This document shows positions 3,222 through 56,261 of a stretch of 64,000 nucleotides of DNA, one piece after another. Both the position numbers and the translations under genes were made by a program. The notes under the pieces are model-generated. The model was not told the DNA's origin, did no database searches, and worked only from the letters and a program-made list of their open reading frames with translations. Numbering within the stretch: the stretch's first letter is position 1; every line of letters starts with the position of its first letter. Origin of the DNA: an uncultured Candidatus Saccharibacteria bacterium (GTDB lineage Bacteria; Patescibacteriota; Minisyncoccia; Phycocordibacterales; JAKAEA01); the NCBI GenBank assembly GCA_964520645.1, contig CAZFND010000002.1, positions 9,424 through 73,423 of the forward strand, in the 5' to 3' direction.

Positions 3222-3659
3222 TTATTCTCGTATATCTATCTCTCGGGTGTTTTCGTCTATAAAAGTGAAAAAAATTTTTTGGACTACGTCAGGAATAATA
3301 TCATCAACTTTTTCTGGCCATTCTATAAGAATGAGATTTCCGGGTTCTGAAGTTATTTCGTGCCAGCCAAGTGTTTCGAGTTCATCAGCACGCTCTAATC
3401 TGTATGCATCAATGTGAATAAGATGTGAAAAGGCTTTATTTTCTAATTTATATATTTTTTCTATTACAAACGTAGGACTCGTCACAGTTTCGGTAACTCC
3501 TAATGCTTCTGCAACAAACTGTGTGAACGTTGTCTTCCCTGCTCCAAGATCACCATAGAGACACACAATAGTAGCCGCAGACACATTTTGGGTGAGTGCT
3601 TTAATAAAATCAGTGGCTAGTTGCTGAGTTTGAGCGGGACTATTCGTACGAAATTTCAT
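3222..3659 (-). CDS. tsaE: tRNA threonylcarbamoyladenosine biosynthesis protein TsaE
   Basis: Walker A GDLGAGKTTF, SPTF, HIDAYRL, IEWPE motifs. Start set at ATG 3657-3659 (MKFRTN). The longer ORF to 3755 reads through a GC-rich terminator and is not credible. Confidence 0.7.
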   Translation of the reverse strand: MKFRTNSPAQTQQLATDFIKALTQNVSAATIVCLYGDLGAGKTTFTQFVAEALGVTETVTSPTFVIEKIYKLENKAFSHLIHIDAYRLERADELETLGWHEITSEPGNLILIEWPEKVDDIIPDVVQKIFFTFIDENTREIDIRE

Positions 3660-3680
3660 AGAAGTATAGTACCACAGACA

Positions 3681-3713
3681 AAAAAAGACGCTCGCCGGTG
3701 AGGGCGAGCGTCG
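3681..3713 (-). terminator. GC-rich intrinsic terminator (GACGCTCGCC-ggtgag-GGCGAGCGTC followed by T6 on minus strand)
   Basis: Perfect 10 bp stem plus U-run immediately 3' of the lipoprotein ORF stop. Confidence 0.6.
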
Positions 3714-3730
3714 GGGTGAAGAAACAAAGA

Positions 3731-4024
3731 TCAGTAGTTGCTGGACGGGCGGCATTCGGTGCGGTTGGTGTTGGTGTGGCTGGTCTTGTAGTCGCGGACA
3801 TCCACGTTGATGGGATATCCATTGCCACGACCACCTCCGTGCCAGGTCATGTCCGACCCAAAACGAACCGGGCCGTTACTGCGGACATCCCGCACGTAGT
3901 CCACCCTGGCCCCGTCCTTGTGCAGCTCCTCGTGGAACGAGGTCTCATGGTACACACGGCAGCCGGACATGAGGCTCAGCGACGCAACGATCACAACGAG
4001 AAGCGCGAAACGGGAAGTATTCAT
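3731..4024 (-). CDS. small secreted lipoprotein-like protein encoded in a GC-rich (~60%) insert
   Basis: 97 aa; signal peptide ending LMSG-C (lipobox-like) and Gly-rich mature part. Local GC is far above flanks; own terminator present. Confidence 0.45.
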   Translation of the reverse strand: MNTSRFALLVVIVASLSLMSGCRVYHETSFHEELHKDGARVDYVRDVRSNGPVRFGSDMTWHGGGRGNGYPINVDVRDYKTSHTNTNRTECRPSSNY

Positions 4025-4156
4025 AGACAGAGCTCCCTAAAGGGTTGGTTTCGGATCACTATTGAACTGTGTATATTATACCATATCGGTATATATTGTC
4101 AATGGGTGTATGAGTGGTTTGTTTGTGGCTTCAAACCAAGGTATTATTACTGATAT

Positions 4157-5833
4157 ATGATCCAATTTGACGAAGATAAGCAGAATAAAAAAGTAGACGA
4201 ATTACTCCATGACGAGCAAGAAGAACTCGCGCATACCCTCTCCCGCAAGTACGGCATCAATTATATAGATCTCACTACTGTTGCAGTAAATAGTGATGCA
4301 CTTCGTGTGATTAGTGAAGCTGAAGCACGAGCGGCAAAGCTTGCAGTGTTTGATATTGTTGCCAAGAAAATAAAAGTTGCAGTACAAGCCCCTGAAAACG
4401 AAGAAACAAAAAAGACTCTTGAAATATTTAAAGAAAATGGCTACATCGTGACTTTGTATATGGTTTCACTTCAAAGTCTTGAAAAAGTTTGGGGACGCTA
4501 TGCAGACCTTTCATTCTCAACTCAAACAAAAGGAGGTGCATTTGATATTTCTAGTGAAGAAATTGAGAAATTTTTGCAGAATGTTCATTCTCTAGAAGAT
4601 GTGAAGAAACTTATCTTCGAAACAATTGGCCAAAAGCAGACGTATAAGATTACAAAAATATTAGAAATTATTATTGCGGGCGCTCTTGCTCTTAAAGTTT
4701 CTGATATTCATATGGAGCCTGAAGAAAAAACAGTGCGTATCCGCTATCGACTCGACGGAGTACTTATGGATATTCTCGAACTCGCGAGTGACACCTTTGG
4801 ACTCCTCCTCTCTCGTATCAAGCTTATCGCAGGAATGAAACTCAATGTCACAGGATCTCAAGATGGACGATTTAGTATCGGTGTAGCAAATACAGAAATT
4901 GAAATTCGTGCATCTATTCTACCGAGTGCATACAATGAGTCTATTGTGCTTCGTGTACTTAATCCTGATTCAATTTCAGTACCATTTGAAGATCTTGGAA
5001 TTTCTCCTCGATTACTCAAAATTCTCGAACGAGAAATCAATCGTCCCGAAGGAATGGTGTTGACCACAGGCCCTACTGGATCAGGAAAGACCACAACGCT
5101 GTATGCGTTTATTAAAAAAGTATTTAGTCCTGAGATTAAGATTATTACAATCGAAAATCCTATCGAATATCACGTACCAGGTATTGTGCAAACTCAGACC
5201 GATGCAGACAAAGGCTACACATTCCTCGAAGGACTTCGCTCTGCTTTGCGACAAGACCCTGATGTAATCATGGTGGGAGAAATTCGAGATCAAGAAACAG
5301 CAGAAATTGCTATTAATGCCGCCCTAACTGGTCACTTGGTGTTCTCTACACTTCACACAAATAATGCAGCTGGAACATTCCCCCGCCTCATCGATCTTGG
5401 GGTAAACGCAAAAATTATTCCATCAGCAGTAAGTGTATCTATGGCACAACGACTCGTGCGCAAGCTCTGCCTACATTGCAAAAAAGAAATTCAGCTAGAA
5501 GGTAGAACAAAAGATGTTATTGAAAAAACATTTAAGAGTATAAAAAATCCTGATGAGTACATCGATCATGTTCCAACATCAATTTTTGAACCTGTTGGCT
5601 GTGTTACGTGTAATATGACAGGTTATATGGGACGACTGGGAATTTATGAAGCAATTTTGCGCACCGCAGAAATAGAAAAAGCGATAAAAGATAATCCAAG
5701 TGAACGTGATATATGGAAAGCAGCAGAAAATCAAAATATTTTGAACATGAAACAAGATGGAGTGATAAAAATATTAAAAGGAATCACCTCTTTACCAGAG
5801 CTTGAGCGTGTTGTAGATGTAGAAAATGACTAG
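4157..5833 (+). CDS. pilB: type IV pilus/T2SS assembly ATPase (PilB/GspE family) with C-terminal tetracysteine motif, orphan copy
   Basis: Walker A GPTGSGKTT, Asp box DPDVIMVGEIRD, His box LTGHLVFSTLHTN, CLHC...CVTC zinc motif; N-terminal GspE_N-like region. Confidence 0.8.
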   Translation: MIQFDEDKQNKKVDELLHDEQEELAHTLSRKYGINYIDLTTVAVNSDALRVISEAEARAAKLAVFDIVAKKIKVAVQAPENEETKKTLEIFKENGYIVTLYMVSLQSLEKVWGRYADLSFSTQTKGGAFDISSEEIEKFLQNVHSLEDVKKLIFETIGQKQTYKITKILEIIIAGALALKVSDIHMEPEEKTVRIRYRLDGVLMDILELASDTFGLLLSRIKLIAGMKLNVTGSQDGRFSIGVANTEIEIRASILPSAYNESIVLRVLNPDSISVPFEDLGISPRLLKILEREINRPEGMVLTTGPTGSGKTTTLYAFIKKVFSPEIKIITIENPIEYHVPGIVQTQTDADKGYTFLEGLRSALRQDPDVIMVGEIRDQETAEIAINAALTGHLVFSTLHTNNAAGTFPRLIDLGVNAKIIPSAVSVSMAQRLVRKLCLHCKKEIQLEGRTKDVIEKTFKSIKNPDEYIDHVPTSIFEPVGCVTCNMTGYMGRLGIYEAILRTAEIEKAIKDNPSERDIWKAAENQNILNMKQDGVIKILKGITSLPELERVVDVEND

Positions 5834-47878: not shown

Positions 47879-48151
47879 TTATCTTACAGAATCCTTAAGA
47901 GCCTTTGCTGCTCTAAACTTAGGTACTCGCATTGCGGGTACATCTACCATTTCCCCCGTTCGAGGATTTCGAGCCTTTCGAGCTGCTCGCTGCTTTGCTG
48001 AGAAAATACCAAGACCTGCAATAGAGATTTCGTCGCCTTTCTTAAGCCCAGCAACTATTGTCTCAATCATTGTCTCGACTGCTTGCTCGGCCTGAACTTT
48101 TGTTCCACCAAGCTTTGCATGAACTGCGTCTACGATGCCTGCTTTATTCAT
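47879..48151 (-). CDS. hup: DNA-binding protein HU
   Basis: MNKAGIVDAV…GLGIFSAKQRAARKARNPRTGEMVDVPAMRVPKFRA. Confidence 0.85.
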   Translation of the reverse strand: MNKAGIVDAVHAKLGGTKVQAEQAVETMIETIVAGLKKGDEISIAGLGIFSAKQRAARKARNPRTGEMVDVPAMRVPKFRAAKALKDSVR

Positions 48152-52130: not shown

Positions 52131-52409
52131 TTGACGACTGACTACAAAGAGTTTCCGACTGGCAGTAAGTGGGAGAGAGAGTATCGACAGAGAATCAAGG
52201 CAATTGTTGATCGAGCAAGGGCAGAAGAGGAGGCGAAGAAGGCAGGAATACCCAATACCACCGTTGAGATCAATCCTGAGCAGCAACCTCAGACACCAAT
52301 GCCGCCTCGATCGAAGATATCTCCCCAAAAAGTCTTGGCAATTTTGGGCGCAGAGAATCCGAAGATCCGTTGTGCTCGTCGTAGGACAGATGATCTTCCG
52401 AAAAAATGA
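52131..52409 (+). CDS. small basic protein (paralog 1) in GC-elevated islet
   Basis: TTG start 9 nt after SD AAGAAGGGAG (alternative GTG 52122); C-terminal KVLAILGAENPKIRCARRR shared with paralog 2; own GC-rich terminator. Confidence 0.4.
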   Translation: MTTDYKEFPTGSKWEREYRQRIKAIVDRARAEEEAKKAGIPNTTVEINPEQQPQTPMPPRSKISPQKVLAILGAENPKIRCARRRTDDLPKK

Positions 52410-52418
52410 ATACCAATA

Positions 52419-52450
52419 GGCCCGGGATGTAATCCCGGGCCAGTTTTTAT
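52419..52450 (+). terminator. GC-rich intrinsic terminator GGCCCGGGAT-gtaa-TCCCGGGCC + AGTTTTTAT
   Basis: 9-10 bp perfect stem plus T-run. Confidence 0.7.
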
Positions 52451-55792: not shown

Positions 55793-55899
55793 TATAATTT
55801 TTATTAATTTTTTAAAAAAAATGGCCCGCCGTGAGGCGAACTTGATTCCATAATAATAGGCTGGATTGGCGATTTTGTCAATCTTTAGTATTTAACCAA

Positions 55900-56100
55900 A
55901 AAATAGCCCCCGTCGACACTTGTCGAACGGGGGCAGAGATGTGAGCTTCACGGGATGCGGGAATGTCTGGCTTTGCGTAAGCCCGCGCTTACGATACCTG
56001 CCAGGATCACCAATGCGGTCAGGAACAGTCCCATTGTCTTCACTCCATGAATAAGCCAGCGCGCAACCGTGCGCGCTTACAAAAGAGCTTACGTACTCGA
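55900..56100 (-). ncRNA. candidate GC-rich structured RNA (unknown class) with promoter and intrinsic terminator, upstream of nusA
   Basis: Minus strand: TTGACT-N17-TACATT promoter near 56105-56135; several GC-rich hairpins; ends with GCCCCCGUUCGACA-agug-UCGACGGGGGC + U6 at ~55905-55941. No credible ORF. Confidence 0.3.
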
Positions 56101-56146
56101 GCAATGTAACATTGTATTTGATAATAGTCAAGTTATATAACCATAA

Positions 56147-56184
56147 CGCCTCACCCCTGGCCCCTCTCCTTACCAGGAGAGGGG
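56147..56184. repeat. GC-rich palindromic element copy 4 (CGCCTCACCC-ctgg-CCCCTCTCCTTACCAGGAGAGGGG)
   Basis: Same family as other three copies. Confidence 0.7.
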
Positions 56185-56261
56185 AAGTGGTTTTGTACTT
56201 GTCCCCACAGTCCTACAATCAATAGAAGAGTAAATTTGTTATACTTAAAGAAACTATCTCT

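Follow-up and report, generated by a model that had tools for sequence, protein, structure and literature searches.

A GC-rich island between tsaE and pilB in a Patescibacteria genome is probably a native, positionally conserved lipoprotein gene with a base composition of its own

The short GC-rich island that separates tsaE from pilB in the 64-kb stretch of DNA analysed here (the window) is most likely a native gene, namely an insulated, positionally conserved and fast-evolving lipoprotein gene, presumably highly expressed, whose GC content is maintained in a gene-specific manner. This reading is built on the anatomy of the unit, the conservation of its position, its GC offset, and the purifying selection on and co-divergence of the genes that occupy the same position in relatives, all of which are observed. 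Conservation of position, combined with a GC content at third codon positions (GC3) that stays high at synonymous saturation, indicates that the composition is maintained and bears no trace of a foreign origin.

Composition and coding content of the island

Positions 3681-4030 of the window have a GC content of 58.9%, compared with 38.6% for the window as a whole, and the highest 300-nt GC value of the entire 64 kb falls into this island (0.613, z = 5.8). This bears out the jump in composition between tsaE and pilB that was reported in a preliminary description of the same DNA. The GC-rich stretch extends from about 3681, in the terminator of the gene described below, to about 4050, in its 5'UTR. 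The sole other stretch of the window above 50% GC is located at 55891-56230 (52%). It was considered as another conserved slot and rejected, as this second peak is not conserved upstream of pilB2 in three near relatives.

The island holds an ORF of 97 aa on the minus strand (3731..4024, stop codon included) with a GC content of 59.5%, distributed over codon positions 1, 2 and 3 as 0.55, 0.47 and 0.77. This periodicity is significant (chi2 = 19, p = 7.5e-5). The GC3 of polA, tsaE, pilB and ruvB amounts to 0.26-0.29 and that of the 69 non-overlapping ORFs of the window to 0.30 on average (sd 0.07); relative to its flanks, the GC3 of the 97-aa ORF is offset by +0.49. The comparison of codon usage (GC3 of 0.77 in the ORF vs 0.28 in the host) likewise confirms the deviation in composition.

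The N-terminus of the predicted protein, MNTSRFALLVVIVASLSLMSG followed by Cys, matches a PROSITE PS00013-type lipobox rule ({DERK}(6)-[LIVMFWSTAG](2)-[LIVMFYSTAGCQ]-[AGS]-C, with the Cys at position 15-35); a lipoprotein signal additionally calls for a hydrophobic h-region preceded by an n-region of positive charge. The signal peptide comprises residues 1-21 (4024..3962, minus strand) and is followed by the lipobox Cys at position 22 (codon 3961..3959, minus strand). The lipobox segment IVASLSLMSGC corresponds to residues 12-22, and an Arg at position 5, within the first seven residues, lies in the n-region. Among 5000 shuffled versions of the island, only 11 contained an ORF that had such a signal and was 60 aa or longer. 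Judged by sequence criteria, the 97-aa ORF is a protein-coding prolipoprotein gene, and signal peptide, lipobox and GC3 periodicity uphold the earlier view of the island as a real small lipoprotein gene on the minus strand with its own terminator.

Following export by Sec, the product would receive a lipid on Cys22 and be processed by signal peptidase II; a very hydrophilic polypeptide of 76 aa would remain, anchored in the cell membrane on its outer side. In this mature part (8.8 kDa, pI 8.0, GRAVY -1.22) the residues R, G, H, D, N, Y, S and T are frequent, while L, I, A and M together make up only about 5% of it. It is probably poorly structured; a single-sequence AF2 model of the 97-aa protein reaches a pLDDT of 49.9 and is unreliable. 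The signals of the gene suggest that the lipoprotein is lipidated and has a role at the surface, where it is probably an abundant, highly expressed component.

Transcription signals and neighbouring genes

A sigma-70 promoter of the lipoprotein gene is found at 4075..4102 (minus strand), consisting of TTGACA, a 16-nt spacer and a TG-extended TATAAT. With 12 of 12 consensus positions it is the sole full match on both strands of the 64-kb window, in which three sites score at least 11/12. A Shine-Dalgarno (SD) motif, GGGAG (4033..4037, minus strand), can be read in the sequence 8 nt 5' of the ATG. The earlier account of the island included neither this promoter nor the SD motif.

Behind the ORF, at 3680..3712 on the minus strand, lies an intrinsic terminator, composed of a 10-bp stem (3712..3687) and a run of seven T (3686..3680). 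The stem is perfect, as previously stated, with eight G-C pairs and a 6-nt loop. Its folding energy of -20 kcal/mol places the terminator among the three strongest combinations of a hairpin and T6 in the window; the two others of like strength are located at 55943..55898 and 52446..52401. As a terminator of this type also occurs at the corresponding position in relatives (see below), we do not follow the earlier suggestion that the terminator style is alien to the host. The consensus promoter and SD would drive expression of the 97-aa prolipoprotein, and the terminator would stop its transcript just short of tsaE. By its signals, the lipoprotein gene thus appears to be an insulated monocistronic unit.

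Both neighbours named in the preliminary description were recovered with domain models. The pilB-type ATPase (PF00437, E = 4e-112; 4157..5833, plus strand) is transcribed divergently and bounds the slot on the right. On the other side, tsaE is read as a gene of 145 aa (3222..3659, minus strand) with a PF02367 match over residues 6-140 (E = 8e-35). Relatives' TsaE proteins align from residue 1 of this version and the public protein collection holds exactly these 145 aa; the longer 177-aa ORF (3222..3755) is spurious, and the apparent extension of tsaE had rightly been called an artefact.

Directly after the slot terminator follows an extended -10-like element, TGgTACTAT (3666..3674, minus strand), a putative promoter of tsaE-polA that is separated from the ATG of tsaE by 6 nt. 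In 76 of 86 relatives a TANNNT element ends 4-9 nt (mostly 6-7 nt) before the ATG of tsaE, with the form TGnTAnnnT (e.g., ATGCTAATAT), and an SD-like motif is present before tsaE in only 10 of 86. This pattern suggests that tsaE probably has its own promoter and that the tsaE-polA mRNA is leaderless.

The slot between tsaE and pilB in related genomes

Using PilB as query, 80 loci were fetched from species-representative genomes and a further 80 from metagenomes (L001-L160). The genome loci all belong to Patescibacteria MAGs of the Parcubacteria, Paceibacterota or Zambryskibacteria type. The best PilB identity to the window is 70-71% among the genome contigs and does not exceed 64% among those from metagenomes. 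The gene order, with polA and tsaE transcribed away from pilB and ruvB, is conserved in 135 related Paceibacteria-type loci.

The distance between tsaE and pilB is 39-134 nt in eight genome loci and 396-2079 nt in 66, and these long gaps are GC-rich relative to their own locus. Loci with a gap of at most 390 nt, in which the slot is empty, number eight in the genome and nine in the metagenome set. Where the gap exceeds 390 nt, it contains a single small ORF whose product has a signal peptide, as detected by a home-made heuristic, in 63 of 66 loci of the genome set and 48 of 52 of the metagenome set (111/118). About two thirds of these ORFs possess a lipobox Cys, the remainder an SPI-type signal. 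Approximately 93% of the slot genes are located on the strand of tsaE; four genes of the genome set and three more of the metagenome set are on the opposite strand.

The GC3 of the slot gene is higher than that of pooled tsaE, pilB, polA and ruvB in 62 of 63 genome loci, by +0.24 on average and +0.47 at most (Wilcoxon p = 5e-12), and in all 48 metagenome loci, by +0.23 on average (p = 1.6e-9). Both sets together yield 110 of 111, a number that represents about 100 assemblies and not 111 independent cases, as the sets overlap and some metagenome contigs are MAG contigs (e.g., L004/L081 and L023/L099). The offset of +0.49 in the window is the extreme of this distribution. In 52 of 63 loci the GC-richest 300 nt of the 8-13-kb locus fall on the slot gene.

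The transcription signals recur as well. In 57 of 60 relatives the slot gene is preceded by a promoter of at least 10/12, mostly 17-70 nt from the ATG; about one third of these promoters score 12/12, often with the TG extension. Between the stop codon of the slot gene and tsaE, 55 of 60 relatives have a G+C-rich hairpin followed by a T-run. These hairpins and the two comparable sites elsewhere in the window indicate that the terminator is of a style native to the host. In Paceibacteria-type genomes the slot nearly always holds one small, strongly promoted and fast-evolving gene for a secreted protein or lipoprotein. The window gene shares its position, orientation and promoter/terminator architecture with the beta-sandwich lipoprotein family of the slot.

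Relationships and evolution of the slot proteins

No relative of the window protein emerged from sequence comparisons. Neither Pfam (E up to 1) nor NCBIfam (E up to 10) contains a family for it, and a word-indexed search of 5.8 billion protein clusters gave no match. An exhaustive phmmer search of 1.84 billion representatives found no true homologue; two matches with E around 1e-5 were rejected as repeat-summed artefacts in repetitive proteins of 940 and 2009 aa. Homologues were likewise absent from PDB sequences, from plasmids and phages (tblastn) and plasmids at the DNA level (blastn), from scanned metagenome and viral contigs, and from 163 related loci and their slot proteins (tblastn, phmmer), including the slot proteins of the nearest relatives (PilB identity 68-71%). 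A paralogue was not detected by tblastn in the window or in the 163 loci. In TRF the slot gene displays only a 15-nt unit in 2.1 copies (score 41), hence no significant tandem repeats. The window protein is thus a sequence orphan, whose link to the slot genes of relatives is positional only.

Among the relatives, BLAST single linkage unites 33 (+5) of 63 slot proteins in one family. Its members have in common a domain of some 100 aa at the C-terminus (VxVxN...LxxGxSxTL...WxI), and the long ones carry a helical linker rich in Lys and Glu. No Pfam or NCBIfam model covers this main family, and the sources name its members only "hypothetical protein". About 20 of the 63 are BLAST singletons, to which each of the four nearest relatives contributes, and the window protein is unmatched like them; many singletons are short proteins in which G, R, Y, H, D and P are frequent. 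Compared with the slot beta-sandwich family (A1), the window protein is aligned by hhalign at the lipobox only (probability 3.7%), and hmmsearch with the A1 profile gives E = 0.64 in a database of 64 sequences.

Identity of the slot domain rises with that of PilB (Mantel rho = 0.34, p = 0.001), from about 18% at a PilB identity of 60-70% to about 39% at 80% or above. At the 68-71% that separate the window from its nearest relatives, a short protein under low constraint would be expected to have diverged beyond recognition, and divergence and replacement would look alike here.

Rates of substitution were obtained from 30 non-overlapping close pairs of relatives' slot genes. In synonymously unsaturated pairs dN/dS of the slot gene is 0.07-0.22; for the pair L041/L058, for example, dN and dS are 0.089 and 0.40 in the slot gene, 0.048 and 0.31 in tsaE, and 0.009 and 0.27 in pilB. 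Slot genes have a dN 4-10 times as high as pilB (p = 3e-8), without a significant difference in pS between the two (p = 0.14). We interpret a dN/dS below 1 with unraised pS as an indication of real proteins under weak purifying constraint and not of hypermutated DNA; hypermutation was rejected on the same grounds. Most pairs have a dS above 1, yet GC3 is high in both partners, which indicates a stationary state rather than an import that has not yet been ameliorated. Recombination with a breakpoint in the slot occurs as well, as evident from the pair L037/L057, in which dS is 0.18 for tsaE vs 2.5 for pilB and the slot proteins differ in length, with 32% identity.

Alternative explanations

In AT-rich genomes, islands of high GC usually turn out to be RNA genes, and the strong promoter and terminator would suit a structured non-coding or dual-function RNA that is not primarily a protein gene. 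Such an RNA is nevertheless highly improbable, given the codon-position periodicity, the signal peptide and the dN/dS well below 1 of relatives' slot genes; furthermore, the segment has no Rfam match at gathering score (the best is suhB with 21 bits vs 41, overlapping the terminator), and the folding z-score of the transcript is only -1.2 against composition-matched shuffles. The plus strand contains an ORF of 151 aa (3698..4153), which is longer than the lipoprotein gene and is listed for the 74.6-kb NCBI contig in the public protein collection (P0149) along with the 145-aa TsaE and PilB, the 97-aa product being absent there. That this ORF should be the real gene is extremely improbable. Its codon-position GC within 3731-4024 (0.77/0.47/0.55) is the mirror image of that of the minus-strand gene, its GTG start lies inside the terminator hairpin, from where it runs across the divergent promoter region to end 4 nt before pilB, it belongs to no Pfam family, and in about 93% of loci the slot genes of relatives share the strand of tsaE. 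It is an antisense shadow ORF and not a gene. Public gene calling chose the antisense strand and thereby left the lipoprotein gene unannotated, which also limits searches of protein databases for such genes; slot genes may be systematically prone to wrong-strand calls.

As to its origin, the preliminary description had proposed a recent acquisition from a high-GC donor or, alternatively, an assembly chimera. The former would account for a GC3 of 0.77 in a host with 0.28, a codon usage like that of a genome with 60-65% GC, and the orphan status of the protein within its clade, provided that amelioration had not yet taken place. However, a GC-rich gene is kept in this position in low-GC relatives (63/66 and 48/52 loci), 110 of 111 with a slot gene display the same enrichment and the promoter/terminator architecture is common to them, while slot genes co-diverge with PilB and retain their high GC3 after synonymous saturation. 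The 97-aa protein has no detectable counterpart in a high-GC organism, plasmid or phage, in any of the collections searched, and the region lacks an integrase, a nearby tRNA and a significant border repeat. An 8-bp direct repeat, TTCATAGA, over the start codons of the slot gene and of tsaE was considered as an insertion scar and dismissed as chance, about four such 8-mers being expected in 750 nt. We regard recent acquisition as very unlikely. An assembly chimera, in which a GC-rich fragment of another organism was spliced into the contig, is suggested by the abrupt change of composition inside a MAG contig, and yet is almost inconceivable. The segment is a complete transcription unit; its GC-rich part is exactly one CDS with its terminator, set between an AT-rich promoter and SD of the host type and the tsaE promoter. 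Both flanks are syntenic with relatives, and the pattern recurs in about 100 assemblies from different studies and assemblers. A replacement of the cassette within the clade, in which the slot served as a recombination junction and the ancestral beta-sandwich lipoprotein gene of this lineage gave way to a GC-rich secreted-protein gene of other Patescibacteria, either unrelated to it or arisen de novo, is somewhat unlikely in our view, and would be compatible with a native slot as the origin of this particular allele. The singletons among the slot proteins, all four nearest relatives included, the breakpoint in L037/L057 and the slot genes on the opposite strand point in this direction. Against it, the slot domain has already fallen to about 18% identity at a PilB identity of 60-70%, and divergence past recognition explains the orphan equally well; moreover, a donor allele of the 97-aa gene was not found in the metagenome and viral contigs, related loci and slot proteins searched.

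Nature and possible cause of the GC bias

In the reading preferred here, a native gene under mostly vertical descent, the slot gene would be kept at a stationary GC equilibrium by a gene-specific force, either selection on how the unit's DNA or mRNA is composed or locally biased repair or conversion. From the flanks to the slot, third-position frequencies shift from 0.31 to 0.16 for A, from 0.32 to 0.23 for T, from 0.19 to 0.29 for C and from 0.18 to 0.32 for G. Codons ending in G and in C both gain in all amino-acid families, A-ending codons are halved, and GC2 is raised, too; the enrichment extends to all codon positions. A GC3 gradient is absent from the first 120 codons of tsaE and the first 200 codons of pilB, which indicates that the bias is bounded by the transcription unit. 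A gradient caused by regional recombination or gBGC was rejected for the same reason. Two further candidates were likewise rejected: high expression as a general cause of GC-richness, because an HU-like gene (47879..48151) has a GC3 of 0.32, and a trait of secreted proteins, because other genes of this kind in the window have a GC3 of 0.24-0.31.

We infer that the cause is specific to the gene. Selection on composition, e.g., for transcript stability or for avoiding spurious AT-rich signals, could be responsible and is ranked first; conversion that is locally biased and tied to recombination in the slot could be an alternative and is ranked second. Neither the locus nor the phenomenon turned up in our full-text searches of the literature, and we know of no earlier description of a composition pressure on one gene in an AT-rich genome. 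Experiments have shown genic G+C to be a possible target of selection in its own right, independent of codon preference (Kelkar, Phillips & Ochman 2015, PMC4478552, building on work in E. coli from 2012). The uniform gain of G- and C-ending codons in the slot gene, with no subset of 'optimal' codons, is the signature expected from such selection. In those experiments, however, the pressure is genome-wide and the species are GC-rich or GC-neutral, while the slot presents a single gene in an AT-rich genome.

Comparison with known systems and implications

Close counterparts of the window gene are the members of the slot beta-sandwich family in Zambryskibacteria and Parcubacteria MAGs (A1/A2), with which it shares position, strand, promoter/terminator architecture, lipoprotein signal and elevated GC. 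Acquired genomic islets resemble it in their sharp deviation of GC and codon usage, bounded within tens of bases, and in encoding an orphan protein. Unlike these islets, the slot is occupied in relatives, its deviation is clade-wide and stationary, and mobility genes, a tRNA and a donor are missing.

Lpp/OprI proteins (Braun's lipoprotein and its like; PF04728, NF040598) are very small and abundant lipoproteins as well, encoded by monocistronic units whose promoter and intrinsic terminator are both strong. By analogy, the slot product may act as an abundant membrane-tethered component of the envelope, its abundance being suggested by the signals of the gene. The window protein nonetheless does not match either Lpp/OprI model, lacks the alanine-zipper coiled coil, and has a polar mature part rich in His, Arg and Gly. 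An outer membrane to which such a protein could be tethered is not known from Patescibacteria. The Vsp/Vlp/Vsa proteins of Mollicutes are fast-evolving surface lipoproteins of host-dependent bacteria with small genomes, and a comparable role is possible for the slot product. In contrast to them, the slot gene is present in a single copy and without significant tandem repeats, and the locus has no phase-variation machinery or invertible promoter.

As a tentative generalisation, Paceibacteria-type Patescibacteria may carry, at a fixed locus, a rapidly evolving surface lipoprotein gene under a strong promoter, with a stationary composition of its own, with GC3 up to 0.5 above that of the genome, borders within tens of bases and largely vertical descent. 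If this holds true, it would provide a natural case of gene-specific selection, or of biased repair or conversion, acting on G+C content, and a counter-example to equating a compositional outlier with horizontal transfer. Filters for HGT or chimeras that rely on composition would wrongly flag or remove a native gene with a GC3 offset of +0.49. A single gene with a GC equilibrium other than that of flanks less than 100 nt away would likewise constitute a clean natural test of selection versus biased conversion. Finally, a fast-evolving and probably very abundant surface lipoprotein encoded beside a pilus ATPase is a candidate for interactions at the cell surface or with a host.

The slot and the tsaE start in related loci

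The gap between tsaE and pilB, which in the window is occupied by the GC-rich gene of the 97-aa lipoprotein (3731-4024, minus strand), is a slot that was compared among the related polA-tsaE/pilB-ruvB loci retrieved with PilB. In eight species-representative genomes (loci L011, L018, L045, L048, L052, L056, L061 and L072) it is empty, tsaE and pilB being separated by only 39-134 nt. Loci L037 and L057 differ at a synonymous divergence (dS) of 0.18 for tsaE versus 2.5 for pilB, and their slot proteins, 230 and 128 aa long, share only 32% identity. The disparity in dS, together with the dissimilarity of the slot proteins, implies a recombination breakpoint within the slot in this pair. A complete locus of the Paceibacteria type, with polA, tsaE, slot, pilB and ruvB, is present on an 8.7-kb contig (L024, JBEBJM010000020.1) of a metagenome-assembled genome (MAG) labelled Nitrospira sp., in which this contig is probably mis-binned.

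The 8-bp direct repeat TTCATAGA includes the tsaE start codon in its copy at 3655-3662 and that of the lipoprotein gene in its copy at 4020-4027, and both copies read TCTATGAA on the minus strand. Because about four 8-bp repeats of this kind are expected by chance in the 750-nt region, we treat it as either a coincidence or a shared initiation context. The tsaE upstream region was surveyed in the window (3657-3674) and in the related loci (L001-L160), with 86 loci counted. An extended -10 element (TGnTAnnnT) has its 3' end 4-9 nt, mostly 6-7 nt, upstream of the tsaE ATG in 76 of these, and a Shine-Dalgarno-like motif precedes the gene in only 10. Judging from these upstream sequences, tsaE appears to be leaderless throughout the clade.

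The public gene calling of the contig retained a 151-aa antisense shadow ORF (P0149; 3698-4153, plus strand) and omitted the 97-aa lipoprotein ORF. GC-rich genes in AT-rich MAGs may systematically be called on the wrong strand.

A second GC peak in the window

The second GC peak of the window (52% GC) contains a further GC-rich mini-unit (55898-56131), divergently oriented to a second pilB-type ATPase gene (pilB2, from 56262 onward), the first gene of a pilC/prepilin operon. It comprises a TG-extended promoter-like site (56131-56103, 9/12 match), a minus-strand mini-ORF (55948-56034, 57% GC) with a GGAG Shine-Dalgarno sequence, encoding the hydrophobic 28-aa peptide MGLFLTALVILAGIVSAGLRKARHSRIP, and a hairpin + T6 terminator (55943-55898) which, at -23.9 kcal/mol, is the strongest of its kind in the window. 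The mini-unit has no match in Rfam and no conserved counterpart upstream of pilB2 in the three near relatives compared. The third very strong terminator of the window, likewise a hairpin + T6 (-21.1 kcal/mol), is located at 52401-52446 on the minus strand.
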